A stretch of DNA of 44,485 bases from an uncultured Planctomycetia bacterium (GCA_964352425.1 CAYGRZ010000006.1:1-44485); one strand, 5' to 3'; counted from the first letter of the stretch, positions 1,737 to 41,114 are shown. Made by a program: numbers and translations. Notes: generated by a model not told the origin, from the letters alone.

Positions 1737-3404
1737 ATGAATATCATCAATCTCTCGCTTAAGGTCCTCGAACCCAACCGCAGGTCATTTGAGGCAGCCA
1801 CAAAGGATCCCATCAAAGCGCAGGAGAAGGTCCTTCTCGAATACCTGAAGCGCAATAAGAACACCGAATACGGACGGGCCCATAATTTCGCCGCCATCAG
1901 GTCAATAGAGGACTACCGCTCGAGCGTGCCGCTCGTAGAGTACGAGTCGATCCGGCCGTATGTCGACAGGATGGCCGCCGGCGAGAAGAATATCCTGATA
2001 AGGGACACCCCGGTCTTTTACGGCATCACGAGCGGCACCACCGATAAGCCGAAACTCATCCCCACGACCAGATACTCCGAAAAGAAGAAAGACGAGATCC
2101 TCAACCTCTGGAGCTACTATATAGCGCGCGACCACCCCGATGTGCTCGACGGAAAGATCCTCGCTATCGTGAGCCCGGAGGAGGAGGGGCATACTCCCGA
2201 TGGGACGCTCCTGGGCGCCGAGAGCGGCCACAGCTACCGCCAGCTTCCCGCGACGGTCATGCTCCTGTATTCGCTGCCATATGAGGTATTCGAGATACCG
2301 GACTACGAGGCACGCCATTACGCGATGCTGCGCATCAGCATGGGCCAGGACATAACCGATGTCGCGACGCTCAACCCCAACACCATCGTCCTCCTGTGCA
2401 GGAAGATCGCCCGGTGGCAGGACCTTATCATAGCCGATATCGCTGCCGGAACGCTCTCGGAAAAGTTCGATATACCCGAGCGCATACGCCGGATCATCAG
2501 CAGGCACCTGAAGCCGGACAAGCGGCGCGCCGAGGAGCTTAAGGCGATCCTGTCAGCTAAAGGGACGCTTCTCCCCAAAGACTTCTGGCCCAATATGAAG
2601 ATCATCGAATGCTGGGTGGGGGGGATGATGAAGCTCTATCTCAAAGAACTCGAGGCATACTTCGGCCCTGTCCCGATACGTGATATGGGCTGTGTCTCGA
2701 CCGAGGCGCGCAGTTCCATACCCGTGCGCGACAATGACCCGGGCGGAGTGCTGGCCATACAGACCAATTTCTACGAGTTCATCCCGAAAGATGACGCCGA
2801 CAAGGAAGAGAAGCGCGTGCTCCTCTCGGACCAGCTCGAAAAGGGGAAGGAATATTGCATCGTCGTGACGACCGCCGGCGGCCTGTACAGGTACAATATC
2901 GACGACATTGTCAGGGTGTACGGGTTCTTCAATTCGACGCCCATGATCGAGTTCGTCCAGAAGGGGCGCGGCGCGACGTCGCTCGGGGGCGAGAAACTGT
3001 ATGAATCGCACGTGACCGACGCGGTCAACGCGGCTACAGGGAAATTGGGAATATTCGTCGACTTCTTCTGCGCGGTCACAAAACCGATGGACGGCCCGCG
3101 CTACGATTTTCTCGTTGAATTCTCCGGAACTGCGCCTTCGGATAAGAAAATGATCACCTTCCTGCAGACGGTAGAGAAGGAGCTTTACGCGCGCAACAGG
3201 GAATACGGGTTCGCCCGGCAGTCGCAAGTGCTGAAGAGCCCGATCATGAAGGTCGCCCGCAAGGGTTCATTCGAGAGTTACCGTTCAAAGAAGATATTGC
3301 AGGGGGCGAAGGAGGGACAGTTCAAAGCGCCCCAGCTGACATCCGACCAGGATTTCGATAAGAACTTCTCCGTCGAGAAAACGATCTCTCTTCCCGATAA
3401 TTAA
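1737..3404 (+). CDS. GH3-family acyl-acid amido synthetase-like protein (adenylate-forming)
   Basis: 555 aa; AQEKVL..YL..N..TEYG N-terminus, ITSGTTDKPK loop, FYEFIP, TT.GGLYRYNIDD, GEKLYE, all typical of GH3 proteins. Confidence 0.88.
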   Translation: MNIINLSLKVLEPNRRSFEAATKDPIKAQEKVLLEYLKRNKNTEYGRAHNFAAIRSIEDYRSSVPLVEYESIRPYVDRMAAGEKNILIRDTPVFYGITSGTTDKPKLIPTTRYSEKKKDEILNLWSYYIARDHPDVLDGKILAIVSPEEEGHTPDGTLLGAESGHSYRQLPATVMLLYSLPYEVFEIPDYEARHYAMLRISMGQDITDVATLNPNTIVLLCRKIARWQDLIIADIAAGTLSEKFDIPERIRRIISRHLKPDKRRAEELKAILSAKGTLLPKDFWPNMKIIECWVGGMMKLYLKELEAYFGPVPIRDMGCVSTEARSSIPVRDNDPGGVLAIQTNFYEFIPKDDADKEEKRVLLSDQLEKGKEYCIVVTTAGGLYRYNIDDIVRVYGFFNSTPMIEFVQKGRGATSLGGEKLYESHVTDAVNAATGKLGIFVDFFCAVTKPMDGPRYDFLVEFSGTAPSDKKMITFLQTVEKELYARNREYGFARQSQVLKSPIMKVARKGSFESYRSKKILQGAKEGQFKAPQLTSDQDFDKNFSVEKTISLPDN

Positions 3405-3944: not shown

Positions 3945-4439
3945 TTATAACTTAGCGGAGAGCTGGGTGTTCTCGGTTATGCCGGACTGCGACGTATCGC
4001 GGAGGTCCGAGATATTGCCCTTCTCGGATTTCAGGAGATCGATGACCGCGGCATCCTTCGTTTCGGTGATCGCTTCGCTCAAATATTTGATATCGTATTC
4101 GCAGTAGTGCGTAATGAATTTAAGCCATCCGTTCAGGACAGTCAGCACGTCCTTATTTATGCCCTGGCCGGAGGCAAGCGCTATCTTGATCATCTTCAGG
4201 TACGACTCTATCGTGACAAGCGCGTAGTTATTTATCTCGAAAAGCCGCTCAAGGGTCCTGATGTCGGCAGACTGCGCCTTGCGGATAAGATCGGGAAGCG
4301 CGGTGCCGACTTTGGTCATTGACGTCCTGACAGCGTCGAGCTTGCGGATATGCTCCTGGGCGAAGGCAGGAAGTTCGCATGAGGCTACCAGCAGCATGGC
4401 GCAGAGGACAGGGACTATCGTCTTTGTACAGTTTTCCAT
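3945..4439 (-). CDS. Hypothetical exported, largely helical protein
   Basis: 164 aa; signal peptide ending PAFA-Q (or lipobox-like LVASC); strong promoter immediately upstream. Confidence 0.8.
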   Translation of the reverse strand: MENCTKTIVPVLCAMLLVASCELPAFAQEHIRKLDAVRTSMTKVGTALPDLIRKAQSADIRTLERLFEINNYALVTIESYLKMIKIALASGQGINKDVLTVLNGWLKFITHYCEYDIKYLSEAITETKDAAVIDLLKSEKGNISDLRDTSQSGITENTQLSAKL

Positions 4440-5513: not shown

Positions 5514-5583
5514 GATCTCTTACAGAATACCTGTTAGCTGCTACAAAAACCTGCCAATTGTTTCCCGACCAAAAATGCACCGG

Positions 5584-5653
5584 TGTTAAGTAGAAAAAAG
5601 ATAGCTTCCTTTCTATTGATTTAACTCATTTACGTGGTATGATTCTACTACGT
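5584..5653 (+). promoter_or_regulatory. Conserved promoter cassette of large gene A
   Basis: TGTTAA..AAAAAA..TAGCT..TTTCTA-TTGATT (5616-5621), 16 nt, TGg-TATGAT (5638-5643), 10 nt, ATG 5654. Homologous to 9594-9655 and 16649-16720. Confidence 0.7.
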
Positions 5654-8600
5654 ATGTGTGTCTATAGGAATGGGTATAGTCTTTTATATAAAGCTATAGC
5701 GCTAGCCATGGGGTGTCTATTTCTGGCTGACAGTATAACTTGGGCAGATCCTTCCTCGGCCACTACTCTTGCCGCAGAGTCCAGACTAAAACCTTTCTTC
5801 GAGAAACATGGCTTAGACTTCCAGAACCTCGCCACGGTAGTTTATACAGCCGGCAAGTTGAGAGATTTAGTTACGTCCGGAAGCCTGAGGGAGAGCCACA
5901 TCATGAATTTGAACAGGCTGTTTCCCGATGGCGCGATAAAAATAGACAAGGGTATTAAACAAGGCGCTCTAAGGTCTGGCAAGGTCTATAACTATGCCGT
6001 GTTTCGTTTTGAAAAAGAACAGAAAACTATCAAGGCGTTATTCATTAAAGACCATAATAAGCTTACCGACGATGAACTCTCAGAGCTTAGGATCAGGAAG
6101 GATGAAGTATATCATCTCGATTATCCGGGCCTGGAAGGAATATGGTTCGTAAATCCAGCCGCTATACCAGCGCCCGACATGCCATACACCTGGGGCGATG
6201 GCCCGGACACGGCGGACTTGTCCGCCGACCTGTCCGCCGAAGCCTCATCCGGTCCAGGCGTGACGGCAAAGGCGGATGGGGCGGCACCGAATGTAAAGTT
6301 CCTACGGTCTGCGATCGCCGAGCTGATGTCCCGCATGCCCGGCCCGCGTAGTCGGGCGCACCTTGAGGCGATGATGCGGGGTATCGTCGCGTGCAAAGAG
6401 ACCGGAGTCGCACCGACCGCTTCAGCTGTTGCGGAACGAGCGGGTATTACTATTCACCAGCTGCGCCATCTCGTTTATGGGCCGCTCGGCAATGAGCATG
6501 CGCAGACACTCGGTCTCGTGCTCGATGAGCAGGATACGTCGGGTAGGCTCGATGACATGGCTCTTGCCGTAACAAAGGTTACCCGGAAACATCCCGGCAA
6601 ACCGATATCGTTTGCCGGAATTGCAAGTGAAATGCGCGAGAAGATTGACTGGCAGGCGCTATGGCTTTGGTTTAAACGGCAGCGCAGCCCTGTGGCAAAG
6701 AAGATACGGAAGGGGATAAGCCGTTCCAGGGTCGCGCCCGAAAAAGGCGCCGCCGGCCATTGGAACATGTCGATCGAGGCGTTCCGGAATTTTGCCGAGC
6801 GCCGTTGCCGGGATAGACTGGGCATGCCTACATCAGCGCTCCGGCTGGGCTTGCGTTCACTGATAAACTTCAGGATTATCGTAGTCGCGACCGCGAAACT
6901 CGAAGAGAAGAAAGAGATACCTACAATAACTAATATAACCGGCGCTTCGCCGCATCTTACAAGGTACCAGGTGAACGATACCGTTGAACTTATCGGATGG
7001 CAGCGCGCAGAGAAGCTCGGAGTGGTGAAGGAGCACGATACGAGCGGAATGTCTGCAAGCGTCGAAAAGGCGCTTGCAGAGATCGCGAAGCATATGCCGT
7101 CAAGCGGCATAACTATAAAGCTCGTAGCCGACGCTCTAAAGAGAATGGGCTTGTACGATATGACGTACGGGAATTTCAACAGATGGTTAAAAGGTCCGGC
7201 GGGGAAGCGGTTTCTCGAAAAAATACAGGAGACCCGGCATAGCATACGAGACAGGGTTGACGCAGTGTTTGGAAGGATGACATCCGCGGAGCTTGCTTCA
7301 TTGGATAAAGCGGCGCTTGGCAGGCGCTCCGGGCTTTCGCGCTACGCCTGGAATACATGGACATACCGGCATCGTTTTGATTTCGAGGAGGAGAGGGCGA
7401 AGTTCCTGGATGAAGCCCGCAAAAGAGAGGAGGCGGCGCGGGCTGTTGATGCAATAGTTAATGAGCTGTCCTTGCCGGAGCATGTTACCCGCGATAGGAT
7501 AGAGGCGATTGCCGCGTCGGCAAGTCCCGGAGATATACAGAAAGGCGCCTGCGCCCTCATTACCAAAGCAAGGGAGCTCGATAGAAGGGCATCTACTACC
7601 AAGACCTCTGGAGAGAAGAAAGCGGCGCAAGATGCAGCCGGCAGCATTTACGTGCGGGTCTTTACACTATTGCAGATCTCCGGGGCCGATCGCGGGCTTT
7701 TCGATGAGATCAGGCCGATAGTGCTACAGCGCCTCGATGCCCGATCCGGAACCGGAACGAAGAAACCGGATGCCGCCTCAGTTCGTACAGAAGGAGCTCT
7801 CCGCGGTAAATACGAAAAACTCATGAATGCGGTGATCGACACGGAAGACCTGAAGGACGTGATCAGGATAGCCAATAGGATCATCTCGCTTTTGCGAGAA
7901 GATAAGGGGCTTAGCGCGGAACAGGCAGCCGGGCACGCCGAAGGACTTCTAGACCTTCTTGACGAGGCCGAGAGTTCTCATGAGCAGGAAATCGCCGATA
8001 CGGATGAGGCGGAAGGGGAAGCGGCCGCGGCGGATCTCGAGAGCCTGCGAGCCCAGTTAAAGGAACTTGTCGCAGAATCCGACGACCGGCCGGATAAATC
8101 ATGGAGCGTCGGCGCCGCCCGCGCCGACGGGCCGGAATTCGAGACGAAGCTCTCTGATCTTTTCGCGGAGGGGGAAGAAGTTTCAGGGGCGGCTCCCGAT
8201 AGAGCGGCACCGGCAGGAGCGTCCCCACAGGCCCCAAATGAGACTGTAAAAGCAAAAATGAAAAAAGCCAGGGATTTCATTTTTACTCCGGACTTAGCAA
8301 GACGCGAAGAAAAAGGCATCCCCTTTTTAACAGCGCCGGCGCTATTATCCCGCGGCGGTTCGGTAGATGAAGCGCTTGCCGGGATAGCCCTCCGCATAAA
8401 AGTCTCCGCGGACGCCCCGGCCGGCAAGCTTAAAGTGGATAATTTGCTCGGATATCTTGAAAGATATGCCCCGGAAACGTTTGGCGCGTCAGCCTCTAAA
8501 GACGAAAAGATGATGTTATTATGCCGGGCTTTATGCAAAGAGATCGCCGATTCGCGGTTTTACGGGGCCATGGAGGACGCGATAAACGATTCCATAAACG

Positions 8601-9490
8601 AAGAACTTTCGCGCCTGAAGAGAAGGATCGGCGAGGATCAGGTCAAGAGAGCGAAGATGAGCATGCGCCGCCGCATGTACAACGCTCTGGATGGTCTGCG
8701 TGAAGAGGCCTCTGCGCGGCTGCCCAAGCCTGCGGCCGCGGCGGCATCTAAGTTTTTGCTCGATTCTCAGGCAGATAGGAGTGCATACCAGTTTGTGGCG
8801 GAACCCGCCGTAACTCCCATCGCGATAGCGCAAGCCGAAGCTGACAGAATCCACGATGAGAACCTCAAGGCCGAATATATGCCGACCATCCCGGATAAGA
8901 CGATCCTGTGCCATATCATCACGGATTCGATAGTCCCCGCCGAACAACAGAATATGTTAAAAGTAGCGCTTGAGCAAAATATGGAGAAAGAAGCGGAGAA
9001 GGGTACGGACTATGGAGAAGGCTTCGCCTGCCTGTCGAGCGCCAACGCGGGCAATCCCGGCGGATATATCAAGGACCTGCAAAGTTTAATGCAAAAGAAG
9101 CGGGATGATTACAAAGCCCTGGGCTACACCGACGTCCGGTTCGACGTCGCCTGCCCGGACACCGGGCTCGTCAGCGCGGTCCTTGGAAGTAACCCTGGGA
9201 TAAAAGCCCTTGCCTTTGAACCCTGTAAAGGGGCTGATTTTGATCTTGTGCAGGTCGAAGGCATCATGCTGGCATTGAGAGCGCTCGATTCCGGCGATAT
9301 AGAAAAACTTAAAAGCGTATTCATCCTCCTTGCGGGGAATAGGCTATCCCCGGAACAGTCGGCCATAATGGATATCGATAAATTCATCAAAACCGTGTCC
9401 TTTATTCTCCCCGCCGCGAAGGTAGAGGACTACAATGAGCGCAGAAGGCTAAACGACCTCATCACGGCCAACATCAAACAGGCGGCGTAA
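5654..9490 (+). CDS. Large modular protein A: signal peptide + conserved N-domain, HTH-like repeat array, helical region, conserved C-domain
   Basis: 1283-aa ORF. The track start (5639) lies inside the -10 box, so ATG 5654 is preferred. N- and C-terminal regions are clearly homologous to gene B; ends NIKQAA. Confidence 0.9.
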   Translation: MCVYRNGYSLLYKAIALAMGCLFLADSITWADPSSATTLAAESRLKPFFEKHGLDFQNLATVVYTAGKLRDLVTSGSLRESHIMNLNRLFPDGAIKIDKGIKQGALRSGKVYNYAVFRFEKEQKTIKALFIKDHNKLTDDELSELRIRKDEVYHLDYPGLEGIWFVNPAAIPAPDMPYTWGDGPDTADLSADLSAEASSGPGVTAKADGAAPNVKFLRSAIAELMSRMPGPRSRAHLEAMMRGIVACKETGVAPTASAVAERAGITIHQLRHLVYGPLGNEHAQTLGLVLDEQDTSGRLDDMALAVTKVTRKHPGKPISFAGIASEMREKIDWQALWLWFKRQRSPVAKKIRKGISRSRVAPEKGAAGHWNMSIEAFRNFAERRCRDRLGMPTSALRLGLRSLINFRIIVVATAKLEEKKEIPTITNITGASPHLTRYQVNDTVELIGWQRAEKLGVVKEHDTSGMSASVEKALAEIAKHMPSSGITIKLVADALKRMGLYDMTYGNFNRWLKGPAGKRFLEKIQETRHSIRDRVDAVFGRMTSAELASLDKAALGRRSGLSRYAWNTWTYRHRFDFEEERAKFLDEARKREEAARAVDAIVNELSLPEHVTRDRIEAIAASASPGDIQKGACALITKARELDRRASTTKTSGEKKAAQDAAGSIYVRVFTLLQISGADRGLFDEIRPIVLQRLDARSGTGTKKPDAASVRTEGALRGKYEKLMNAVIDTEDLKDVIRIANRIISLLREDKGLSAEQAAGHAEGLLDLLDEAESSHEQEIADTDEAEGEAAAADLESLRAQLKELVAESDDRPDKSWSVGAARADGPEFETKLSDLFAEGEEVSGAAPDRAAPAGASPQAPNETVKAKMKKARDFIFTPDLARREEKGIPFLTAPALLSRGGSVDEALAGIALRIKVSADAPAGKLKVDNLLGYLERYAPETFGASASKDEKMMLLCRALCKEIADSRFYGAMEDAINDSINEELSRLKRRIGEDQVKRAKMSMRRRMYNALDGLREEASARLPKPAAAAASKFLLDSQADRSAYQFVAEPAVTPIAIAQAEADRIHDENLKAEYMPTIPDKTILCHIITDSIVPAEQQNMLKVALEQNMEKEAEKGTDYGEGFACLSSANAGNPGGYIKDLQSLMQKKRDDYKALGYTDVRFDVACPDTGLVSAVLGSNPGIKALAFEPCKGADFDLVQVEGIMLALRALDSGDIEKLKSVFILLAGNRLSPEQSAIMDIDKFIKTVSFILPAAKVEDYNERRRLNDLITANIKQAA
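6210..6276. repeat. Palindromic REP-like element in frame inside gene A
   Basis: CGGCGGAC-TT-GTCCGCCG hairpin (6210-6227); 12-bp tandem GAC(T/C)TGTCCGCC; TCCGCC (6233-6238) complementary to GGCGGA (6271-6276). Encodes ADLSADLSAEA...AKAD. Confidence 0.55.
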
Positions 9491-9593
9491 TTCCAACATC
9501 CTGTTCCTTTCAGATTGCATAGAAACCTGCCTATAGTACCCAAATAATGACCCCTAGTGCACACATACCCTACATAATGCATGCATGTTAGAT

Positions 9594-9655
9594 AGGAAAA
9601 AGGTAGCTAAATTTCTATTGACTTAACATGTTTATGTGTTAAGCTAATGGCACGT
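9594..9655 (+). promoter_or_regulatory. Conserved promoter cassette of large gene B
   Basis: TTTCTA-TTGACT (9618-9623), 16 nt, TGt-TAAGCT (9640-9645), 10 nt, ATG 9656. Confidence 0.7.
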
Positions 9656-12600
9656 ATGTTTATATCTGATATCAGATATGGCAGGTTATTAAAGGCTATA
9701 GCGGCAGCGGTAGTGTGTACATTTTTGGTTAATGATATAGCCTGGGCAGACTCGCCTCCCGATTTATTTAATCCTTTACAAAGTGCCACACTTGCCCCGG
9801 AGTCCCGACTTAAGTCCTTCTTCGAAAGACATGGCTTAGATTTCAAAAATACCGCCACAGTAATGTTGGCTGCCGGACAACTGCGAAATATGATTGCAAC
9901 CGGTGGCGCAGGACAGGGCAACATTATGAGATTGAATCAATTGTTTAGTGGCGGCGAAGTAGAAATAGAGAAAGATATCAAACAAGGTAATCTTAGATGC
10001 TCCGGCAGGACATATGATTACGCCGTATTTCACTTCAAAAAAAAGAACAAGACAGTCAATGCGCTATTCATTAAGGACTATGACAAGCTTACTGATGATG
10101 AGCTGAGAGAGTTTGGAGTAAAGACTGCCGAAGATAAGCGGTATTTCAATTCTTCGGAGAATCCTGCCTTAAAGGGAGTATGGTTTAAAACGCAACAAGA
10201 CATATGGTCGGAGCGCGCCGCGGAGGTTGTAGAAAACGCGCGTAATTGCATCATAGGCGATATTAGAGATTTTGACCCGCAGGTTGCGCAAAAGAAAGAG
10301 TCCTTCCTGGCTATCCTTTATCATGCCGCGCAGGAAAGGCTTGATAGCATCGCGAGTAAAACGGCGAAGGGAAAACTAAAAATCTTCGCGCGGATGAACC
10401 TGATGAACCTATCGCCGGAAAAACAAAGCGGAGAGCTCGATTACCCTGATGAGGAAATTAAGGTGGTATTGATGACCAGCACTGCTAACCCGCTGACCTG
10501 GGGGCACATCCTGACCCCTTTAGTTGCCATGGACGAACTTAATGCCGATTTTATAGTTCTGCAGGCGCATGGGAAGATGGAGCACAAAGAAAAACTTTAT
10601 CCTTCTGAACGCGTTTCCGTAGCGCATCGCCACCATATGGTACGGGAATCGATCGACAGATTGTCCCCTCTTATGCGTTATACGGATTTAGGAAGCGAAG
10701 ACGATGATTCGCTTGAAGCAGCCGCGCAAATGCACCGCCTTTTAGCGTTAAATCCTAACCGCAAGGTACATATTTTCTTTCTTATTGGAGCGGAAAGTGA
10801 AGCAAGGATGAACAAATACATTCGTCAGCACTATCAGATGTTTAAGGAGAATAATTTCGGTCACAACCCGAACCATAAAATAACCTTTACTGTTACACAA
10901 AGAGGCGAATATGGCAAGCGGGTTACCCTCGAAGAGCTGCTTGCCATATCCCGCCAAGCGCAGAAAGAGCTAGCTTGCGAACAGTTTCTTGATATCGCCC
11001 TGATCCAGCACCCCCATATGGATCTGGGGGTAGCTTCGACCTATTACCGTGTTACGCAGGACGGCGCTTTTGTGCCAAAACCGGTGCATGAATTCTCAAA
11101 GCGTTTTGGTTATTACGGCCATTCACCCATAGATCCACTAACCGGAAAGCCGTTTTATTCCCAGGAAGAATCTTTCAGGAAGAAGATTGGTCCTGTGGCG
11201 AAAGAATTGGCCGCAATGATATATGCAAAAATTAAGGCGGGAATCGCCGGCGATACTCCATTTGTATCTGTGGACGGAGGCTCAGGCTCCGGGAAAAGCA
11301 CTCTCGGAGCAGAAGTCGCAAAGATTCTCTCCGAAGAATACGGCCTTGAATCCAGGATTATAGGTTTTGATATGTGGCTTAAAGACAGGAAATGGCGGAT
11401 AGCGATACAGAAGTTAGTTAAAGGCGACAGGCTAACTTCGGAAGAAATGAAAATTGCAGGAGAATTGATAAACAGAATTAAGCCTAGAGAGATATTTTTC
11501 GGTGAAGAAGGATTTTTTAAGAATGAGGAGATCTTAGCAACTGTAAAGGAATTGGATAACTGGCGAAATTCTTCTTCCGATACGCATACCATGGCCGTTA
11601 AAGACGCTTATATCCGCGAAAAGGGCACAAGGGAAGACGTGTCTATAGGTTTAAAAAAAGGGCAGGTAATAATTTTTGACGGCAAATACGCGAATACCGA
11701 AGAGCTCCAACCGTATTACGATCTGCGTTTTCGTTTGCATGATTCCCCTGACCGCACCGAGGCGCGTTTTCAGATCCGTTCAAGGAAATATAACCCGGAC
11801 GATGCCGATATCCAGGTAGTTTTTTATAAGCTGGCATTGATACCTTCGTATGAGGCTTATGACAAAAGGACAGAATCTAAAATTCACGGGTTTATTGATC
11901 TTAGGGAGGAGGGGAACTGGTTTTTGGAAACCAATTCCGCCGTCTATGCGCTTCCGGATCCGCTTGATTATCCCCCTGAAAAGTTCAGCCGTGTTTTCGT
12001 TGAGTCTGTATATAAGAATTCCTTGAATGAAAAAACCAAGAAAGAGATAAGGCAGCTTTTTGGCGCTATTCAGGCAGAGAGGCTGCTTCCTAAATTGTAC
12101 AAATTTTTTGAAAATTACTTTTTTGTCAGAAAAGGGAGGTTTAACAGTCAGAATGCAGCCCCGGAGATCCGGTCGTCTTTAATGGCGATTCCAGGCTATT
12201 GTCGGGAATCTACGAAGTTCTTCAGATTTGATCATGATAAAAAAACAGTTCAGAAGTATTTTGCCAAACTGATAGACGAAAAAGTCAAAAAAAATGACCT
12301 TACAGTAACAGCGAAAAGCGTGGGTATCTCGAGCGGCGAGGAGCCTTACAGCATTGCCATGCATATTTATTACGCGATGAAGAAATATTACCAAAGTCAT
12401 AATATGCAAAAGGACGGATTTCGGACCTGGCTCTTAAAATGGAAAATAAGAGTCGAGGCCTATGACAAAGACTTGGTGAGCTTGTGTCTTGCGCGTAACG
12501 GATTATTTGATTTTCAGTATGATGAACCGTTGACCGAAAACGCAGACCCTTATTATGACAATCCTTGGCTGATAAACGGCCTTGATCCGGGCGAGACATG

Positions 12601-13615
12601 GAGTAAAAGAGCAGCTCAAGGCATGATGTTGCCGTTCAGGGAGCCCGCCCTAAACGCTCTTAAGGCAAGCGGACGCAGTAAGTTTGATTTTGCTTTTCAG
12701 GCTGATCCTATAATAAGGGGTTGGATCAAGCCGATCTATGTTAATATAAGAAGCCGAGATGATATGCCGATACTTACCCGCACAAAGGCAAATGTTGTAA
12801 TTGTGGGTTACCTAAATGGTTCAAGGATGCTTGGCGATGAAAACCGCTATATTGAAGATGATTTAAAAAAAGCAGTCGATACCGATTATCCCGCCCTGTT
12901 GTGTTTTGGGGATACCGAGGTTGGAAAAGCGGGTGTAAACCCGCAAAAGAGGCCGTACTTGGAAAATACTCCTTTTAATTTGGTGCGTGATGAAGAACGC
13001 AAAATTCATGCCGAAAATCTCAAATATACACCACCTGTTGCCAACAATACGGTCCTCTGCCATATTGTCGCGCCCTCAATACTGCCAGAAGGCCAGAGAG
13101 GTATGCTGAATAGGCTCGATAGCGGAATGAGAAGCCGGAAATATATTGAAAAGATGCTCGAGCTTAAGACTGACGGTTCCGGTGATTTTATAGAGCAGAT
13201 AAAGGATACAATGCAGAGAACGCAAAAGATATACGAGAAAGCTTACGGTAAAGATTACGTCAATTACACGTTTAAATTTGACATCGCCTGTCCAAACCTG
13301 GATCTTGTAAGAAGAGTCCAGGTCGAATTGGGCCTGCCAGCCCTTGCGTTCGCTCCGGAAGAAGGCGGGGGCAACATGGTCCAGGCGGAAAATATCATGC
13401 TTGCATTAAGGGCCCTCCGTATATCCATGGAAACAAACGATATTCAAATCCTTATCAATGCCTATGTTTTTATTACCGGGAATAGGGCAGGTTCGGGGAT
13501 TAAAAATATTGCCAAATTTACCAGGACCAAGTTGTTCGCTATGCCGAAAGTGAATGTCGATGAACTCGGCAGAATCAACGCCTTAATTGAAAAAAATATC
13601 AAGACCGCAGCGTAA
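9656..13615 (+). CDS. Large modular protein B: conserved N-domain, HxGH-type (NadD-like) nucleotidyltransferase, uridine-kinase-like P-loop domain, CheR-like methyltransferase, conserved C-domain
   Basis: STANPLTWGHI (about 10477-10509), VSVDGGSGSGKST (about 11263-11302), SVGISSGEEPYSIAM (about 12317-12361). Termini homologous to gene A; ends NIKTAA. Visibly more AT-rich than the housekeeping genes. Confidence 0.9.
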   Translation: MFISDIRYGRLLKAIAAAVVCTFLVNDIAWADSPPDLFNPLQSATLAPESRLKSFFERHGLDFKNTATVMLAAGQLRNMIATGGAGQGNIMRLNQLFSGGEVEIEKDIKQGNLRCSGRTYDYAVFHFKKKNKTVNALFIKDYDKLTDDELREFGVKTAEDKRYFNSSENPALKGVWFKTQQDIWSERAAEVVENARNCIIGDIRDFDPQVAQKKESFLAILYHAAQERLDSIASKTAKGKLKIFARMNLMNLSPEKQSGELDYPDEEIKVVLMTSTANPLTWGHILTPLVAMDELNADFIVLQAHGKMEHKEKLYPSERVSVAHRHHMVRESIDRLSPLMRYTDLGSEDDDSLEAAAQMHRLLALNPNRKVHIFFLIGAESEARMNKYIRQHYQMFKENNFGHNPNHKITFTVTQRGEYGKRVTLEELLAISRQAQKELACEQFLDIALIQHPHMDLGVASTYYRVTQDGAFVPKPVHEFSKRFGYYGHSPIDPLTGKPFYSQEESFRKKIGPVAKELAAMIYAKIKAGIAGDTPFVSVDGGSGSGKSTLGAEVAKILSEEYGLESRIIGFDMWLKDRKWRIAIQKLVKGDRLTSEEMKIAGELINRIKPREIFFGEEGFFKNEEILATVKELDNWRNSSSDTHTMAVKDAYIREKGTREDVSIGLKKGQVIIFDGKYANTEELQPYYDLRFRLHDSPDRTEARFQIRSRKYNPDDADIQVVFYKLALIPSYEAYDKRTESKIHGFIDLREEGNWFLETNSAVYALPDPLDYPPEKFSRVFVESVYKNSLNEKTKKEIRQLFGAIQAERLLPKLYKFFENYFFVRKGRFNSQNAAPEIRSSLMAIPGYCRESTKFFRFDHDKKTVQKYFAKLIDEKVKKNDLTVTAKSVGISSGEEPYSIAMHIYYAMKKYYQSHNMQKDGFRTWLLKWKIRVEAYDKDLVSLCLARNGLFDFQYDEPLTENADPYYDNPWLINGLDPGETWSKRAAQGMMLPFREPALNALKASGRSKFDFAFQADPIIRGWIKPIYVNIRSRDDMPILTRTKANVVIVGYLNGSRMLGDENRYIEDDLKKAVDTDYPALLCFGDTEVGKAGVNPQKRPYLENTPFNLVRDEERKIHAENLKYTPPVANNTVLCHIVAPSILPEGQRGMLNRLDSGMRSRKYIEKMLELKTDGSGDFIEQIKDTMQRTQKIYEKAYGKDYVNYTFKFDIACPNLDLVRRVQVELGLPALAFAPEEGGGNMVQAENIMLALRALRISMETNDIQILINAYVFITGNRAGSGIKNIAKFTRTKLFAMPKVNVDELGRINALIEKNIKTAA

Positions 13616-13687
13616 TTACAATATAATCCCACTATCACCCTTTACAAAAATCACCAATCTGCTACAATATCCACATCTATAACTATA

Positions 13688-13732
13688 GAGATTGCTTCGG
13701 CTCGCTGCCTTCGGCAGCGGCCTCGCAATGAC
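13688..13732. repeat. REP-like palindromic element GAGATTGCTTCG...CTCGCAATGAC
   Basis: Outer arms ATTGC/GCAAT; inner perfect 7-bp hairpin CGCTGCC-TTC-GGCAGCG (13703-13719). Lies between a TTTACA-16-TACAAT promoter (13641-13668) and the yjbQ RBS. Confidence 0.7.
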
Positions 13733-16720: not shown

Positions 16721-19700
16721 ATGTTAAGTAATAGTAAATTTAGGCAGCGGATATTCAAGGTTATTTGTTTAGTATTAGCCTGCGTCCTGATATTAAATGA
16801 TTTAAGTTTTGCCGCGTCTCAAAACGATCAGCATCTCGCCGCTGCCAGCCGCTTCAATTCCATACTCGGTCAAAAGAGGAATAAGCCTTTCGTTGAAGCC
16901 GCAACATTTATGGTCATCTCCTCAATCATCGGCAAATACCTGCGCGACGGTATATCCCAGTACACGTTGATCCCCTGCATCAAACATCGGATATCCAAGA
17001 CCGAGCTTGCATGGGCCAGGGAGAAAGACCCTCTTCTCGCAGGATGCGCTATAGACGAGCTGTCATTCCGCGCGGACGAAAAGGCGTTTTATCTGCCGCT
17101 CTATCGCAGGGACGCGCAGGGAAAGAGAGTAAAGGCGTACGTATATACATTTTTAATCGAGGGCGGGAGCACCGATACAGGTTGGACCATTCCGCTGGGG
17201 AATGGGACGAATGTCTATGTGAAGGTCGACGTAGTGCCGGGATATGAGCCGCCGGTCAGCCGAAAGCAGGCAGTCGAAAAGCCACAGGCAGCCGGCAGCA
17301 ATGTTGTGGCCGCCGACAGGCCCTCCGAGCCTGTAACCATCAGCGCAGCCGGGTTGCAGAACGAGATAGCCGGTATTATCGCATCAGACGGCTATCCGGC
17401 TGACAAAGTGAATCTGCGAGACTTGTTCGCATATGTAAAAGCGCACAATCCCGGAATGGTGCAGCTCGGTACGACAGAGGATGAGAAGCTCGCCATCTTC
17501 TGCCTGGCGATCTGGGGGGGCGGACAGGACACCATACGTTTTTCATTTAAGGAGACGGTGCAGCCATCAGAGATGCAGGATCTCAAACAGGGCCTGATCG
17601 CCGATCTCACCAACGATGCGAAAAAAACCCTGGATAAACTTGAACACGTCGTGCTCCGGTCGGACAGGCGTTGCGCGTTCGCCGTTGCCCAATACTACGG
17701 AGCCGGCAACACGAATATCGCCTCTCTTATGACGTGGTCGCCTCAGAAGGCCAGAGTGGCCCGGGAGTTCTTCGGGCTCTGCGTCGAACCGGAAAAACGG
17801 AGATTCGTCGGGCAATGGGAGAGGGATTACGCAAGGCATCTCTCGGGGATGTCCTCCAGAGAGCTTCAGCGCGAATGGGAGAGGGTCGGCACCATTGCCG
17901 GATATATAAATGACCCGCTCTATCTTCTTTCGGTCAACGATTGCCTGAGCGATACGTTTCAGTTCCTCCATCCGTCTTCTTTCTATGTCTTCGACACGGC
18001 ATCGGACCGCGCGGCGGTCAAACATATCGTATCTTACATCGCAAAGACGGGTATCCTGCTCGAATGGGCGTCCCGCCATTGGGGTCCAAAAGAGGCGGCC
18101 GGCTTTTCATCGCTTCCCCGCACGATAACGCCGAGCCTGAGCTATATCAAAGAAACCATCTTCCCGCGACACCTTGAAGACGGAAGCGAGGTGCCGTTCG
18201 AGAACAGGGTGGCATGCAAAGTCCTCAGCGCTCTGACCGACGCGGATGCGGAGACGATATTGGGCTCAAAGCCGGAAGATAAAGGCCCGAACGTAGCTGA
18301 AAAAGAATTCAACCGCCAGCAGGCGCGCATCTTCAGGGACGGCGGCGACGGGCCGGAGGTAGCCCGTGAAATGTTCGCTCCGGAAAGCGGTCCGCTCCGA
18401 AGCGCCGAAGAAGTATCGCCGGAATTTATCAAAAAAGATAAGCGCGGCAGGATCAGGGCGGTAAAAGACAGGTTCGGGACCGTCTGGGAAGAATACCATT
18501 ACAGAACCTTCCGGAACGTAGTGAAGCTGCGAAATTTAAAGACAGGGAAGATGGATATAAAGGTCAGGTACCCATCCGGAGAAAACGCTATCGAGGCATG
18601 CAAGGTAATGGTGAAGGGCAAATCAGCCGGTTCCGTCGATTATTACACGGACGCCAATACCATAACAACGATCCGTATAAACGACAGGGACAAGGGTGTG
18701 GGAGAAACGGTAGTGAACTGGTTCTTCAAGGCGGCCGAGAGGCGCGGCGCCTCACGCGCGGGGATATCCGGCGTCGCCAATCCTGCGCTCGACCATATAG
18801 GCAGAAAGCTCATAAAAGAACCCGCCAATATGAAGCCTGAAGAGATGGATCCGGCCGCCGTCGAATATGCGGTGATGGGAGCCGACTTTGATCCGTTCAG
18901 AAGTTCCGGAAGCGAACTCGGAACGGTAAAGGTCTCGGACGGCAAGATCGTATCATTCGACCTGCCGGCTCACCTCGTTCCGGCCCTTGACAGAGGAAGG
19001 GTTGTCGTACGCGACCGGACCTCCGGCAAAGAGGCGGATGTCGTAATACTTTACAATAAACAGAAGAGAGAGAATATCCACGGCGCACCGAATCCGATAT
19101 TCCCGGTTCTCCACCCGGACGGAGCGATAGAGCACCGGCAGGAAGGCGGAAAGGCCGATGAAATATCCGGTTCGCCAACGGTGGATGCATCCTCTCCCAT
19201 TACATCCGCCACTCAAGAAGCTAACAAGGCCGAAGAGTATTTTAGCGCGAATGGCCTCACAGGATACCCTGCATTGAAAAAAGCATTTACCTCCGAAGTA
19301 TTGGCTGCGCTCATCGACGACCCCGCGCTGCGGCCCGTGTTCCTGCAGGTGCTGCCACAAGAGAATATGGGGCCGCTCGAAATAGATGAGACAATCACAA
19401 TTGCCGGCAAAGATGTGCGGGATATCCTTGAAGAGCATAGCGTATTCCTGGTCGGCGGCGCCGATACGGCAGAGCGGTTATTGAGAGAGGGCCATAGAAT
19501 AGTAGTAGGCGTTACCGACAAGCCAAGCAGCAAAACGCTTATACCGGTGAATAAGGTAGCCAACGGCAGGCAGGCGTATTTCCCGCTTCCGGACGGCACC
19601 TGGCTTGGGATAAAAGGTGCGGGTCAATTTAACAGTGAAACAGAGCCGCCATTCTATTTCAGGAATCAGGCCGGATACCCCGAAAGGTGGGAGGCTCTCG

Positions 19701-25700: not shown

Positions 25701-28700
25701 GCTTGAATGGACGCGGCGACACCGGCCAGGCCGAGGTCTGTCGAAAAATAGCGCACGATGCGAGAGGATTTATCGAGAAGAATAAGCAGGCGTTCTGGGA
25801 CAGGGGATTGAGAATAACCTCATGCGAAAGACATGCCTACGAAGTAAAAAGGCGCCTGGCCGAGAAAGGCATCGGCGCGACGGTGATGCATGGGGTGCGG
25901 GGCGACGAGCATCACGTGTGGGTCCTGACCGATGACGGCTATATTATAGATGCGTATCCCAGAGATAACGGCGCGCCAAGGGTATTCAAGGCGGGGTCTA
26001 TCGACACCGACGAATATAAAGGGAAGGACATCATTAGCGTCGAGTGGGCCCCTCGGGAGATCGACAGGTGGAACGCAGCCGCGGAACGCCTGGCATCTGC
26101 TTCAGCAGGCAGGACGGCTCCGAAAGATGAACTCACATTATTTATGTCCGTTATAGAACTATATGCCCCGGCCGGCCAGCCGCCGGCAGGTTCCGCGGAA
26201 GAAGGGCTGCTCAGGCTCGATCTCGACCAGATGAGGGGGCTGCTCAAGCGGCCGAAGCTTACGTGGGAAGGCCTGAGATCGCTGAAGAGCCGGGCTAACC
26301 GGATGTGGCGCGACCTCGGTTCGCAGCTGCGGCTTTCTACCGATAATATTTTGCATACCGCATCCATAGTTTTCAATGACGATATAAACGCCGGATTCAG
26401 GGAATTCGCCGCCGTCTGCAGGGCAGGTATCGCTTCCTGCAGAAAAGATATAGAAAATGGCAGGTTCGACAGGCCCAGGATAGTTGCTATGCTCGAAGAT
26501 ATACGAAAAGCGCATACAAGACTTTATCTCAACCATCGCAATCAGGGCCCTGCCAACGAACCTTCTCTCGATGCCATTACAGGATTATTCTCTATTTCAT
26601 CTTTTCCGGGACTCGACAAAGCTGATAAGGTTATAGCGCTAAGCGCCATAACCGAATCGGAAAAGTCGCTCGCAGAACTTGAGCGCCTTGCCGACGCGGG
26701 CATGTTCGCGGATTCATGGGATGCGCGTGTAACAAGCGGGGTTTACGACTCTTCGCGCGTACTCGGCGCACAACCTGGCGCGGCGTCCTCAAAATCGACG
26801 CGGCGAGCCTACGAGTACCCGCGCTCGGGCGAGGGCGACGGCCCGGGGATGTTGGACGACATGGCCGAGGCTTCCGTTGAGACGGGCATGTCGTTCGATG
26901 GGCGGAAGAGGGCGGTAACAAAATATATTATGGAGAACGATGAGTCGATGTCGGCGCCTACCGCCGGCCTTAAAGGCGTACTCAAGAAGTACAGCATAAA
27001 GATCGTCCCGGCCAAACGGGGTAAGGGCGGATTGCGCGAACTTGCTGATGCTCTTGCGAAAGACGGGACGCGCCCTCAAAAGAAATTCGTGCCGGAAAAG
27101 ACGGTTGCGCAGGTCAAAGCCGATGCTGCAAAGGTCATTGGCATGGCGCGGGAAGAGATCAACAGATTAAGGACAGAGGCCGGGCTCGCCATGAGCCGGG
27201 AACGATTCGCGGATGCGGCAGCCCTGAATGAAAAGATCGTAGCAGTGACAAAAGAGGCTATTGACCACGCGGATGAACCATCGCTCAAGGACAGGCTGCA
27301 GAAGATGGCAGATTTCCATATCGAAAAAGCTGAAAATGCCAGGCAACTGCAGGTTGCCAAGGATAAGAGGTTGCAGGACAAGCTGAGGAGCGAACAGAAA
27401 GAGGCGTATCAGGAAGCCGAGAGACAAAAGGCGCTTAAGGATGAGGCGGAGAGGGGCCGGCAGGCGAAAGAATGGCAGGAATCACGCCCCGCTCAGGAGC
27501 GGCTGCTCGTAACCAGGAAAACCGAGGTGATCGCGCTTTTCGAAGAAGCCGAATCGCGGTTAAATAGCCTGGACTTCGAAGATTTCCCGGGAATAAATAA
27601 TATACGCGATATACGCGAAGCCGCTTCCGCGATAAAGGCGTTTAAAGAGTTCGGCGAGAAATTTGGGGACGACGCAGTGCTGACGGCCGGCTTCGAAGAG
27701 CTCGAGTCAGTAATACGATCAATAGAGGAGTTATACGCAGAATGGCGTCGGGAGCAGGATGAGCTTATTACCGTCGTGACGATGGACCCGAACGAGCTTC
27801 TCGCGAGGATCGGGTCCGCCAGAGCGAAACTGGCGAAGGGCGAGGCGCTCAAGCCTGAAGAGAGGCTCAAGAGCCTCGAGGACTCTTTCCAGGCAGTAAA
27901 GGCATCTCTGATGGGATCGCTGGAAAAGAGGGAGACATTCACTGATGAGGACGCGAAGGCGATCGACCTGCTTAAACAGATCCAGAAAGAGCTCGCCGCC
28001 GTTTCGGCAGCGGGGAACAGGCGCTTCGGCGGACCGAGCGGCGGGGAGGACTTGAGCTGGCTGTATCCAAAGGCCGCGCCATTCATCACGCCGGACATGG
28101 CCGCGGCAGACCTCCTGCAGGCCCTGCCGGCCGATATCCTGGCGCTCATGCCGGATAATAAGAAGGCGGCGTGGGCGGATCAGATCATCGGGATGCGCGC
28201 GCGGAGAGCTTCCGAAGCTCTCCGGGAAAGGAACGCCGCGCAGACTACTGCCCCGCGGCCGGCAAAAGCGAGAAAGATTACCGCGAGGGAAAATAAGCGC
28301 AGTGAAGCGCGGCATATAACAAAACATTTTGTAAAAGGGCAAAAACTTTACAGGCAGGGACGGACCGCCGAGGCGATCGACGAGTTTGAGACAGTATTCT
28401 CGCTCGCTCCGCAAAATATATGGACTCTCCTCTACCTGGTCCCCGCACTGATCGATGCCGATCGGTTCGATGACGCGCTCATGTATGCCGAAGCGGGCCT
28501 GCATATCCCGGACAGGAGCACACACGGCGCCGGTATGAATAAACCTGAATTTAAGGCGGGCCTCCTCTGCTTTGAGACGCATTGCTACATTCATAAAGGC
28601 GAGTTCAGCAAGGCGATCGAGGCCTGCCGCATGGCATGGAAATTCGACCCGCAGAATGTTGACGTAAGGCGCCACCTTGCGGAGGTGTACCTTGATCAAT

Positions 28701-36721: not shown

Positions 36722-37855
36722 ATGAAAGCAATGATCGTACTGGAAGACGGGGCCTCGTTCGAAGGCATTTCGATAGGCGTGCCGGGCGAGAAGATGGGTG
36801 AGGTCGTGCTCAATACCGCGGTCGTAGGATACCAGGAGATGATGACCGACCCGACCAACGCGGGCAAGATACTCGTCCTGACGTATCCGCTCATCGGCAA
36901 CTACGGTGTCGCGAAGAAGTTCAACGAATCGAGGAAATGCTGGATCGCGGGCCTCGTGATCAAGGAGGCCTCGAGGATATATTCGAACTGGCAGGCCGAA
37001 GGTTCGTTCCAGGACTTCCTGCAGGACGAGAAGGTGACGGCGATAAGCGACGTCGACACGAGGACCCTTGCGGTTGCCATACGCGATAACGGCGAGATGC
37101 TCGGCATCATCTCAACGACCGACCTGAAAAAAGAGTCGCTCATCAAGAAACTGAGAGAGCATAAAGCCGCGAAGAAGGATCTCATCAGGGAGATATCGGT
37201 AAAGCACGCGGCGCACACGAAAGTCGGCTCGGGCCCGAATATAGCGGTGCTCGACCTCGGGTTCCTTCACAGCTTCGCCCACCAACTCAAAACTCTCGGC
37301 TGCAATGTAACGCTCCTGCCGTACGACACAGGCGCACGCGACATCCTGGCCGGCCATCCCGACGGCCTCATCATCTCGAACGGACCGGAAGACGACGCGA
37401 GCCTGCCCAAGGTCGCCTCTACCGTGCGCGAGCTCCTCGGCAAGGTACCGATGATGGGTATCGCGACAGGCCATCAGGTGATCGGCATAGCCCTCGGCGC
37501 CAGGCTCACGAAAATGAAGATAGGCCACCACGGCGTTAACTACCCGGTGCGAGCCACCGATTCGTTCAAGGGCGATATCACCGTCCAGAACCATTCGTAC
37601 GTCATAGACGAGAGCACGATCAAGAACAGTAAGAACGTTGCCGTGACGCTGCGGAACGTAAACGACCACACCATCGAGGCGATGGAATCCAAAACCCTCA
37701 AACTCATATCGGTCCAATACAATCCGGCCAGCCCGGGCTTCGATGAGATCAATGAGGCGTTCCGTAGATTCCTTGCCATGGCCGGCGGCGGCAAAGGCAT
37801 TAAACTGAAGAAGAACCCCAAGCAATCGAGTGAGGCGGCCTATGCCAAAGCGTAA
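36722..37855 (+). CDS. carA: Carbamoyl-phosphate synthase small subunit homolog with substituted glutaminase triad
   Basis: [47 protein letters not shown] replaces GICLGHQ and QYNPA replaces Q(Y/F)HPE. GGAG RBS. Confidence 0.92.
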
Positions 37856-40800: not shown

Positions 40801-41114
40801 CGACCGCCGGCACTGCCGACGCGCTCAAATCGAACGACATCGATGTCCAGGCGCTGCCGAAGCTCACTGAGGGAAGGCCGAACATCATCGACCTCATAAA
40901 GGACGGCAAAGTGAGCCTGATCATCAATACGCCGGCGGGCAAGGCGACAAAAGAGGACGAGATGAAGATACGCTCGAACGCGATCCTCTATAACGTGCCG
41001 CTGATCACGACCGTTTCCGGCGCGCAGGCTTCGGTAAACGGCATCGAGAACCTGAAGAAGCATCCGAAGATGTCGGTCAAGTCGCTGCAGGAGTACAATA
41101 AGGCGGTTAAATAA
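37842..41114 (+). CDS. carB: Carbamoyl-phosphate synthase large subunit, full length
   Basis: MPKRKDI start; two ATP-grasp halves (GVHTGDS, GIHSGDS, EVNPR twice); C-terminal MGS domain; overlaps the carA 3' end. Confidence 0.97.

Follow-up and report, generated by a model that had tools for sequence, protein, structure and literature searches.

Paired conserved end domains around a hypervariable middle in two adjacent genes of a lineage-restricted Omnitrophota protein family

Two adjacent open reading frames (ORFs), here termed genes A and B, were analyzed in a 44,485-nucleotide (nt) stretch of DNA from an uncultured Planctomycetia bacterium (GCA_964352425.1 CAYGRZ010000006.1:1-44485), referred to below as the window, from whose first letter all coordinates are counted. 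Both genes lie on the + strand. Gene A spans 5654..9490 from a probable ATG start at 5654 (mechanical ORF 5639-9490, 1283 amino acids, aa), and gene B spans 9656..13615 from a probable ATG start at 9656 (mechanical ORF 9647-13615, 1322 aa). The host genome comprises 1.68 Mb in 72 contigs and is 99.6% complete. A and B belong to a lineage-restricted Omnitrophota family in which fixed ends and a hypervariable middle are the plan of the family, not the outcome of a local swap between A and B.

Comparison of A with B by BLASTP yielded two regions of homology, one at each end. At the N-terminus, residues 3-170 of A matched residues 1-180 of B with 49% identity (E 2e-46; ~5645-6148 versus 9647-10186), and at the C-terminus, residues 1059-1283 of A matched residues 1108-1322 of B with 37% identity (E 1e-30; ~8813-9487 versus 12968-13612). 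A preliminary description, made from the sequence alone, had proposed that the two genes share their ends and differ completely between them; both matches are real, and its coordinates were right to within a few codons. Between the ends (A ~176-1058, B ~186-1107) no sequence similarity was detectable by BLASTP. The next best segment reached only E 0.26, so the middles of ~900 residues are unrelated at the sequence level, in agreement with the exchange that had been described. The frame of gene A is open across the orphan middle of ~880 aa that lies between its two conserved domains. Composition along both genes likewise bore out the earlier remark that B is the more AT-rich: the G+C content of B (GC 0.42-0.45; at third codon positions, GC3, 0.42-0.49) is low along the whole gene including its ends, compared with 0.44-0.57 (GC3 0.47-0.64) in A.

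Similarity extends into the upstream DNA. The element before A (5570..5653, +) consists of an A-tract, a -35 box TTGATT (5616-5621) and a TG-extended -10 box TATGAT (5638-5643), and promoter scanning returned a match at 5616-5643. The element before B (9575..9655, +) contains TTGACT at 9618-9623 and a -10-like TAAGCT at 9640-9645, a promoter-like site below the scan threshold. Alignment of four upstream regions found those of A and B to be alike, with a TTGAyT -35 box; it agrees with the similar promoters of the preliminary description, while the scan called only that of A and left the -10 of B sub-threshold. In a genome-wide motif search, an element of ~90 nt (A-tract, TTGAyT, 16 nt, TG-extended -10) was located before exactly four genes: A, B, a third paralog on contig C9 (the C9 paralog) and P0003, a giant gene downstream of B. 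The similar promoters probably reflect a common expression signal, placed also before the C9 paralog and the giant gene. An ATG at 5639 sits within the -10 box of A; the likely starts are ATG 5654 for A, 9656 for B and 16721 for P0003, 10-14 nt past the -10 box. Judged from consensus, such starts would give near-leaderless mRNAs.

The middle regions are referred to here as cargo. The cargo of B (10202..12967, +) contains three enzyme-like modules according to Pfam and NCBIfam: a NadD-like nucleotidyltransferase at aa 276-481 (nt ~10472-11089; TIGR00482, E 1.4e-6, below the curated cut-off), a P-loop nucleoside/nucleotide-kinase-like module at aa ~535-577 with a Walker A motif at aa ~544-551 (also below its curated cut-off), and a CheR-type S-adenosylmethionine (SAM) methyltransferase at aa 855-956 (nt ~12209 onward; E 1.7e-6, 28 bits versus a Pfam cut-off of 27). 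The three enzymes previously assigned to B are therefore confirmed in part, for the methyltransferase, which passes the curated cut-off, and sub-threshold for the nucleotidyltransferase and the kinase. The cargo of A (6164..8812, +; aa ~176-1058) is an orphan, helix-rich region. Helix-turn-helix (HTH)-like repeats had been claimed for it and were not recovered: Pfam returned none at E<=0.1, and four pieces of the cargo searched gave only a sub-threshold MerR match (E 0.038). HTH-like units at aa ~220-560, followed by a charged coiled region, are possible from the sequence. A single weak internal repeat was present (~282-333 versus 451-501), with a score of 56 against shuffles of mean 25, standard deviation 5 and maximum 64. 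The A cargo had no homolog in an index of 5.8 billion proteins (near and shorter length classes), no counterpart in the protein atlas and no sequence match in the Protein Data Bank (PDB); a PDB sequence search with gene B was also empty. PADLOC reported nothing for A or B, and only methyltransferase and kinase look-alikes for the C9 paralog.

Each end comprises recognizable parts. Gene A begins with a leader (5654..5746, +) that has a basic n-region and a hydrophobic core and ends in ..DSITWA, a signal-peptidase-I-like small-x-small pattern at which cleavage is predicted. The A N-domain follows (5747..6163, +; aa ~37-175), and the A C-domain (8813..9487, +; aa 1059-1283) closes the protein with ..NIKQAA. 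In B, the leader (to ..NDIAWA, nt 9748) and N-domain (to aa ~185) occupy 9656..10201 (+), as delimited by BLASTP, alignment and leader statistics, and the C-domain (12968..13612, +; aa 1108-1322), delimited by BLASTP, profile and tree, ends in ..NIKTAA. The limits of the A domains rest on BLASTP and AlphaFold2 (AF2) models, with alignments for the N-domain and a profile for the C-domain. The AF2 model of the A N-domain had a predicted local distance difference test score (pLDDT) of 84.3 overall and >90 for residues 60-170, and shows three helices on a four-stranded antiparallel sheet, followed by two short helices. The C-domain was modelled with a pLDDT of 93.3 and a predicted template modelling score of 0.90 as a three-layer alpha/beta fold with a parallel sheet and eight helices.

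Neither end domain matched Pfam or NCBIfam, and for neither was there a Foldseek match at E<=0.001. Structural matches to the N-domain were weak (best VIA Z 4.7, best Foldseek E 0.24). For the C-domain the best Foldseek match had E 0.024 and the best VIA match was HypD at Z 6.6 (rmsd, root-mean-square deviation, 3.2 over 116 residues), with periplasmic-binding, LacI and receiver-like folds near Z 5. HypD and the other fold matches were treated as generic arrangements and not as specific relatives. Conserved polar positions of the C-domain are Cys42, Cys123, Gln54, Glu78, Gln156-x-Glu158 and Arg165, together with the terminal Ala-Ala; Cys42 and Cys123 are nearly invariant. A complex prediction for the A N-domain (42-176) with the A C-domain (12-234 of the piece) scored 0.02 against a mark of 0.32 and is uninformative on binding either way.

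The same ends recur elsewhere in the genome and in related genomes. The C9 paralog has 3388 aa, with an N-end 70% and a C-end 51% identical to those of A; the N-domains of A, B and the C9 paralog align at 50-66% identity, and all three proteins match the C-domain profile at E 1e-113 to 1e-120. Its middle contains SAM methyltransferases, a protein-kinase-like domain, and GNAT-like and other modules. Among the 3120 ORFs of the genome, a hidden Markov model (HMM) built from the three C-domains matched no ORF other than those of A, B and the C9 paralog. A and the C9 paralog share 23 identical nt that encode ADLSAEAS, immediately behind the N-domain in A (aa ~190-205, ~6206-6250) and immediately ahead of the C-domain in the C9 paralog; this common linker sits on opposite sides of the cargo. 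The C9 paralog also has a block of ~300 aa (..ERRDAIPGAKAEGQGLRAEDG..) twice.

Beyond the host genome, a search with the whole of A yielded seven non-self matches, each covering only 13-18% of A, at the ends, and each with a different cargo: acyl-CoA synthetase; aminotransferase III; ARMT1; radical SAM with NUDIX, HAD and epimerase; MurB; HD with radical SAM and DUF218; and one without a Pfam family. Searched against 1.84 billion representatives, the C-domain profile matched 290 proteins at E<=1e-3, of which 154 also passed E<=1e-30. Among the matches listed, the C-domain ended no more than 5 residues from the end of the protein in 150 of 150, in proteins of 123-6492 aa; it is always terminal. 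An N-domain HMM gave an N-terminal match in 92 of 157 collected proteins, the remainder being mostly short C-terminal fragments. Both domains were full-length in 78 proteins, with middles of 76-6023 residues (median 870).

The cargo of the full-length members is hypervariable. Only 41 of 3003 pairs of the 78 showed similarity between their middles at E<=1e-6, and only 11 with at least 50% coverage. Unrelated cargo occurred even between fairly close ends, as in P0071 and P0093 (N 70%, C 77%) and P0030 and P0045 (N 67%, C 70%). Accretion was also observed: P0017 holds the cargo of P0023 plus that of P0050, and P0085 holds that of P0079. Pfam recognized cargo families at E<=1e-5 in 19 of 34 scanned members and none in the other 15; the families recognized were ARMT1, radical SAM, metallophosphoesterase, B12-radical SAM with aldo-keto reductase, nucleotidyltransferase, PfkB, PPDK_N, methyltransferases, receiver, patatin, glucosamine-6-P isomerase-like, CheR, URO-D, GNAT, metallo-beta-lactamase, MutS domain V and HATPase.

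The leader is a further common feature. A hydrophobic window near residue 9 was present in 65 of the 78 members, with K+R averaging 2.66 before it and 0.78 after it, and a small-aromatic-small tripeptide (AWA, SWA) ended the leader in 53 of these 65. A and B are without any further hydrophobic segment, and the C9 paralog has two more inside its cargo. The leader resembles a signal peptide of the Sec type bearing a site for signal peptidase I, and export and cleavage after WA are predicted from it; the genome encodes signal peptidase I and one secretin.

The family is narrowly distributed. The C-domain was present at E<=1e-10 in 29 of 401 genomes of the phylum, host included, in one to three copies each, and these genomes are concentrated in two families of one class (10/15 and 15/25). 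Of sixteen related loci, ten are on metagenome-assembled genomes labelled Candidatus Omnitrophota, one is labelled Candidatus Aadella gelida and five are labelled 'uncultured Planctomycetia'. In the plan common to the family members, an N-terminal leader of Sec type would close with a small-x-small pattern like that of signal peptidase I sites (..AWA, ..SWA, ..SFA). The conserved N-domain (~135 aa) comes next, then the hypervariable cargo (76 to ~6000 aa; one to many putative enzyme or binding modules), and last a conserved alpha/beta C-domain of ~210 aa, always the end of the protein.

To compare the histories of the two ends, trees were built for 35 of the 78 members, picked around A, B and the C9 paralog with the other 43 left out. 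The A N-domain was nearest to P0009 (75%) and to the C9 paralog (66%), and the A C-domain to P0027 (71%) and P0008 (66%). In the C-domain tree, A fell in a seven-member clade (SH-like approximate likelihood ratio test, SH-aLRT, 99), B in a five-member clade (SH-aLRT 100) and the C9 paralog elsewhere. By the approximately unbiased (AU) test, the N-domain data rejected the C-domain clade of A (log-likelihood difference 157, p-AU 5e-7), and the C-domain data rejected the N-tree trio of A, C9 and P0009 (log-likelihood difference 234, p-AU 1.5e-45). This conflict between the module trees indicates that recombination within these genes happened repeatedly. Consistent with this, the closest C-domain relatives of A in other genomes have other middles and distant N-domains (L009, C 71%/N 37%; L010, C 64%/N 45%), and the best N-domain partner was also the best C-domain partner in only 20 of the 78 members. 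The end modules themselves therefore reassort. A itself is a mosaic, with an N-end of the C9/P0009 type, a C-end of the P0027/P0008 type and an orphan cargo. Over evolutionary time the family would diversify as recombination reassorts N-end, cargo modules and C-end, and as whole genes are transferred between related genomes.

These findings are best accommodated by an exported family whose members have handling modules in common at both ends and a replaceable cargo between them, with recombination and gene transfer as the sources of diversity, a reading to which a probability of roughly 0.7 is assigned and in which the handling role and the export are themselves predictions. The end modules may serve as common handling parts, for export, retention, assembly or delivery, and the middle would be the working part. 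Several points weigh against it. Much of the cargo (radical SAM, MurB, pyridoxal-phosphate aminotransferase, NadD-like, ATP kinases, response regulator, MutS ATPase) needs cytoplasmic cofactors, which is hard to reconcile with Sec export to the periplasm or medium on a topology predicted from charge and hydropathy. The neighbourhoods of the 16 loci shared no conserved transporter or partner gene, and nothing recurred in them except between two syntenic genomes; no dedicated machinery therefore supports the handling role. Specific structural relatives are lacking for both end domains, whose role is guessed from position and conservation. Furthermore, Cys42, Cys123 and the Q-x-E positions could make the C-domain itself an enzyme or a ligand-binding domain and not a passive signal. 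The representative library was clustered at 50% identity, at which recent swaps between near-identical ends are invisible.

The need for cofactors would be resolved if the leader, N-domain and C-domain were recognition handles of an undescribed delivery route, by which enzymes of cytoplasmic type (radical SAM, MurB, aminotransferases, NadD-like enzymes, kinases, methyltransferases) are exported onto or into a partner or prey cell where the cofactors exist. This proposal is tentative and of low probability. If true, A and B would be two interchangeable effectors of host-dependent, ultra-small bacteria, and the family would be an effector-shuffling platform with a logic like that of multifunctional autoprocessing repeats-in-toxin (MARTX) toxins or type IX cargo, built from new domains.

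Alternatively, the leader could be an uncleaved membrane anchor that holds the enzymes on the cell's own cytoplasmic face, with the end domains as docking or oligomerisation modules of a membrane-bound metabolon. Cargo of cytoplasmic, cofactor-dependent type would fit such an arrangement, as would the two further hydrophobic segments in the cargo of the C9 paralog, and the same reading is considered for long proteins with only transmembrane segments in the parts consulted of a preprint on Omnitrophota (10.64898/2026.06.07.730766). It is made doubtful by the positive-inside rule, under which the K+R averages before and after the hydrophobic window (2.66 versus 0.78) put the N-terminus inside and the rest outside, by the small-aromatic-small tripeptide, typical of cleavage sites, at the end of 53 of 65 leaders, and by the lack of any other hydrophobic segment in A and B. 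Export with shared handling ends remains the preferred reading.

The history of the locus bears on how A and B came to be adjacent. In four of five relatives checked, one of the same genus included, the gap from dus to the DUF1846 gene is 412-1366 bp versus 9541 bp here; in the fifth, DUF1846 was not found. The gene order in the same-genus genome is dus, UPF0047, holin-like, small ORF, DUF1846, one 3511-aa giant, carA and carB, and in that genome (93% complete) no C-domain match was found at E<=1e-5. From this spacing and gene order, A and B are an insertion of ~8.1 kb between dus and the UPF0047 gene (~8.1-8.2 kb at 5514..13690, +, absent between these two genes in related genomes). Over its full length B is orthologous to P0024 (79% identity), which has the same cargo and is the closest relative of B in the cargo as well as at each end, and the GC3 of B, 0.42-0.49, compares with 0.78-0.83 in the housekeeping neighbours. 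The ortholog and the foreign composition along its full length indicate that B came in as a whole gene; it is compositionally foreign throughout.

A local origin, by tandem duplication at the locus and replacement of the middle of one copy via the conserved flanks, is improbable on this evidence. A and B are adjacent on the same strand behind similar promoters, and the 12 nt past both stop codons are similar. A loose segment of ~26 nt (CCTnTnAGnTnnnACAAAAACCTGCC-like) is found after dus (5530-5556), after A (9503-9531) and after B (13641-13672), the spacing expected of two tandem units. However, the segment copies are only ~60-65% alike, a promoter-like site before the UPF0047 gene (13641-13668) overlaps the copy that follows B, and the likeness may be due to chance or to a shared regulatory element; as the only hint of a unit boundary, the segment is weak. 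Against duplication in place, the C-domains of A and B lie in the different, well supported clades described above, each with closer relatives elsewhere, B is closest to P0024 in ends and cargo alike, the ends of B share the low GC3 of B and not that of A, and the end DNA of A and B is 62-67% identical with a longest exact match of 12 nt. The preliminary description had inferred cassette-like replacement of cargo between conserved flanks. That view stands at the scale of the family and of evolutionary time, on the rarity of matching middles and the conflicting trees, and does not stand as a local event between A and B, given the separate C-domain clades, the P0024 ortholog and the low GC of B, ends included. 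Orthologs keep the same cargo in the case of B and P0024; across the family overall they do not.

Programmed variation, in which the three paralogs would form an active cassette system (of the pilE/pilS, vls or shufflon type) switching cargo within a population, has in its favour that the same ends and promoter occur in several copies within one genome, but is scarcely credible. All three copies have their own promoter and full frame with none silent, and no recombinase, silent cassette, invertible repeat or long direct or inverted flanking repeat was found near A and B by inspection of neighbour genes and a repeat search. The end DNA of A, B and the C9 paralog is 62-72% identical with longest exact matches of 12-24 nt; such runs are too few, and not long enough, to sustain ongoing exchange by homology, for which long near-identical flanks would be expected. 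One sediment-metagenome contig seemed to join 9273 to 13595; the shorter side of this joint has 23 letters, the contig is a single one of low depth, the joint falls inside the conserved C-domain, and such joints arise from other organisms or repeats. Two metagenomes from freshwater sediment contributed small shares (0.13 and 0.09) in the form of short contigs, with no usable data on alternative cargo, and no RNA run was among the holders listed.

Other genes of the window were also annotated. Upstream of dus lies a bacterial GH3-family protein (1737-3404; acyl-acid amido synthetase type, three GH3 Pfam domains, E 1.5e-76), and at the start of the window is a half-size gene like the carbamoyl-phosphate-synthase large chain (12-1625, 537 aa, one ATP-grasp unit), besides a full carB (37830-41114) that adjoins carA. 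The true start of the UPF0047 gene is probably ATG 13750 rather than TTG 13692, according to the same-genus ortholog.

Further downstream are two giant genes. P0003 (16640..30346, +) has a probable start at ATG 16721, giving ~4541 aa, and combines the same promoter element and a similar leader with a different N-region and C-domain type. P0004 (30261-36452; ~2030-2063 aa) overlaps the end of P0003 by 86 nt, and given this overlap its true start is probably further down. The two stand where the same-genus genome has its single 3511-aa gene (P0158; L008 3628-14160, -). Between P0003 and this ortholog, similarity (49-56% identity) is limited to four blocks, namely the leader, residues 58-173 and 546-824, and the final 211 residues; the remainder differs, so that a second end-domain type shows module turnover of this kind as well. 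P0003 shares its own C-domain type with P0158 (56% identity) and P0004 (28.5%). A relation of this type to the A/B C-domain was looked for by hhalign against the last 240 residues of 14 other giant ORFs (P0003, P0004 and P0158 included) and gained no support, the best match having E 0.016; a likeness by eye of the C-termini of the downstream giants (..F.LPAA.., ..QFA/..QSA ends) to those of A and B was not established.

Repeats and linkers were noted within the giants. P0003 has a long, nearly identical internal duplication (~25800-26900 and ~28750-29750; aa ~3040-3370 and ~4010-4340; ..LFMSVIELYAPAGQPP..SSRVLGA). The linker FNRQQxRIFRDGGDG..(D)DMAEP occurs in P0003 (aa 534-560, ~18308-18400) and in the C9 paralog (aa 398-425, L007) and in no other ORF of at least 150 aa in the genome, and a variant, ..SGEGDGPG..DDMA.., precedes a module common to P0003 and the same-genus giant. 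Linkers of the FNRQQ type may mark module junctions or processing sites. Across the genome, a similar leader (..LLIITFI.QDI.WA-like) begins ~13 long ORFs of 1298 to 12,493 aa, many of which end in ..SA or ..AA; contigs with long ORFs include C4, C24, C15, C32, C43, C18, C19, C22, C5 and others. Sixteen long ORFs of 1298-12,493 aa were assigned to multi-enzyme giants and sum to ~64,000 codons, roughly a tenth of the 1.68 Mb.

In Omnitrophota, long multi-enzyme proteins with leaders take up a large part of genomes that are very small, and the pair of end domains with interchangeable cargo adds two new domain families to model and to seek. The small members of the family (~0.5-1.3 thousand aa) offer a tractable entry for work on localisation and topology that is impractical with giants of 10-100 thousand aa. 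The family is also a natural data set on the rebuilding of modular proteins by recombination, and it sharpens the paradox of cofactor-dependent cytoplasmic enzymes behind a putative export signal.

Several known systems resemble the family in part. Polymorphic toxins, which have a variable toxin tip at the C-terminus and an immunity gene behind it, are arranged differently: the variable part is internal here and the C-terminus is the most conserved, and no small conserved downstream gene recurs in the 16 loci. The N-module resembles type IV pilins and type II secretion pseudopilins in placing a small alpha+beta head behind a hydrophobic helix, and such proteins made up 13 of the best 50 VIA rows for the N-domain. 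Their Z scores were only 3.2-4.4, however, and RelE/ParE-like folds scored equally; the leaders here are without the G|F..E prepilin motif, and Foldseek gave no match.

In autotransporters (type V), a conserved N-terminal signal region and a C-terminal module flank a variable passenger. Conserved end regions around a variable middle are common to both, but the C-terminal module of autotransporters is a membrane beta-barrel, whereas the C-domain here is modelled as alpha/beta with long helices, and no autotransporter Pfam match was obtained. In MARTX toxins, conserved ends flank effector modules that differ between strains via recombination, much like the mosaic pattern of unrelated middles and discordant end trees in this family. 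MARTX toxins differ in using type I secretion without a Sec leader, in their glycine-rich repeat ends and in their autoprocessing cysteine protease domain (CPD). No repeats-in-toxin, CPD or other Pfam or NCBIfam family was found in the ends of A or B, nor any protease fold match, although a distant relation may exist; the conserved cysteines of the C-domain are a lead only.

The cargo proteins of the type IX secretion system are alike in logic, with a cleavable Sec leader, a conserved domain at the extreme C-terminus and unrelated enzymes between. Their C-terminal domain is described as an Ig-like beta-sandwich of ~80-100 aa in the portion consulted of PMC11285876; that of the present family is, by its AF2 model, a three-layer alpha/beta domain of ~210 aa with no Ig-like beta-sandwich. 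In addition, a conserved N-domain is present here and none is found in type IX cargo.

The closest likeness in kind is to the long multi-enzyme proteins of Omnitrophota (West-Roberts et al. 2023, bioRxiv 10.1101/2023.11.21.568195) and the 'multi-enzyme metabolic clusters' of the same phylum (bioRxiv 10.64898/2026.06.07.730766). As far as the accessible text of the two preprints goes, both treat proteins of at least 10,000 aa, classed by Pfam content and topology. Shared features are the phylum, an N-terminal signal peptide or transmembrane segment, small genomes dense in very long genes, and a tiling with domains of the methyltransferase, kinase, GNAT, HAD, radical SAM and response-regulator types. 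Such tiling is seen in B and in the C9 paralog; the A cargo is without a recognised domain. At 1283 and 1322 aa, A and B lie far below the length of at least 10,000 aa, and genomes with the C-domain cluster in two families of a single class. No conserved pair of N- and C-domains around exchangeable cargo was found described in the passages of either preprint retrieved by term search, whose supplements might list such domains. On the portions of these sources consulted, the end-domain pair with swapped cargo appears to be undescribed, within a kind of protein, the long multi-enzyme protein of Omnitrophota, that is already known.

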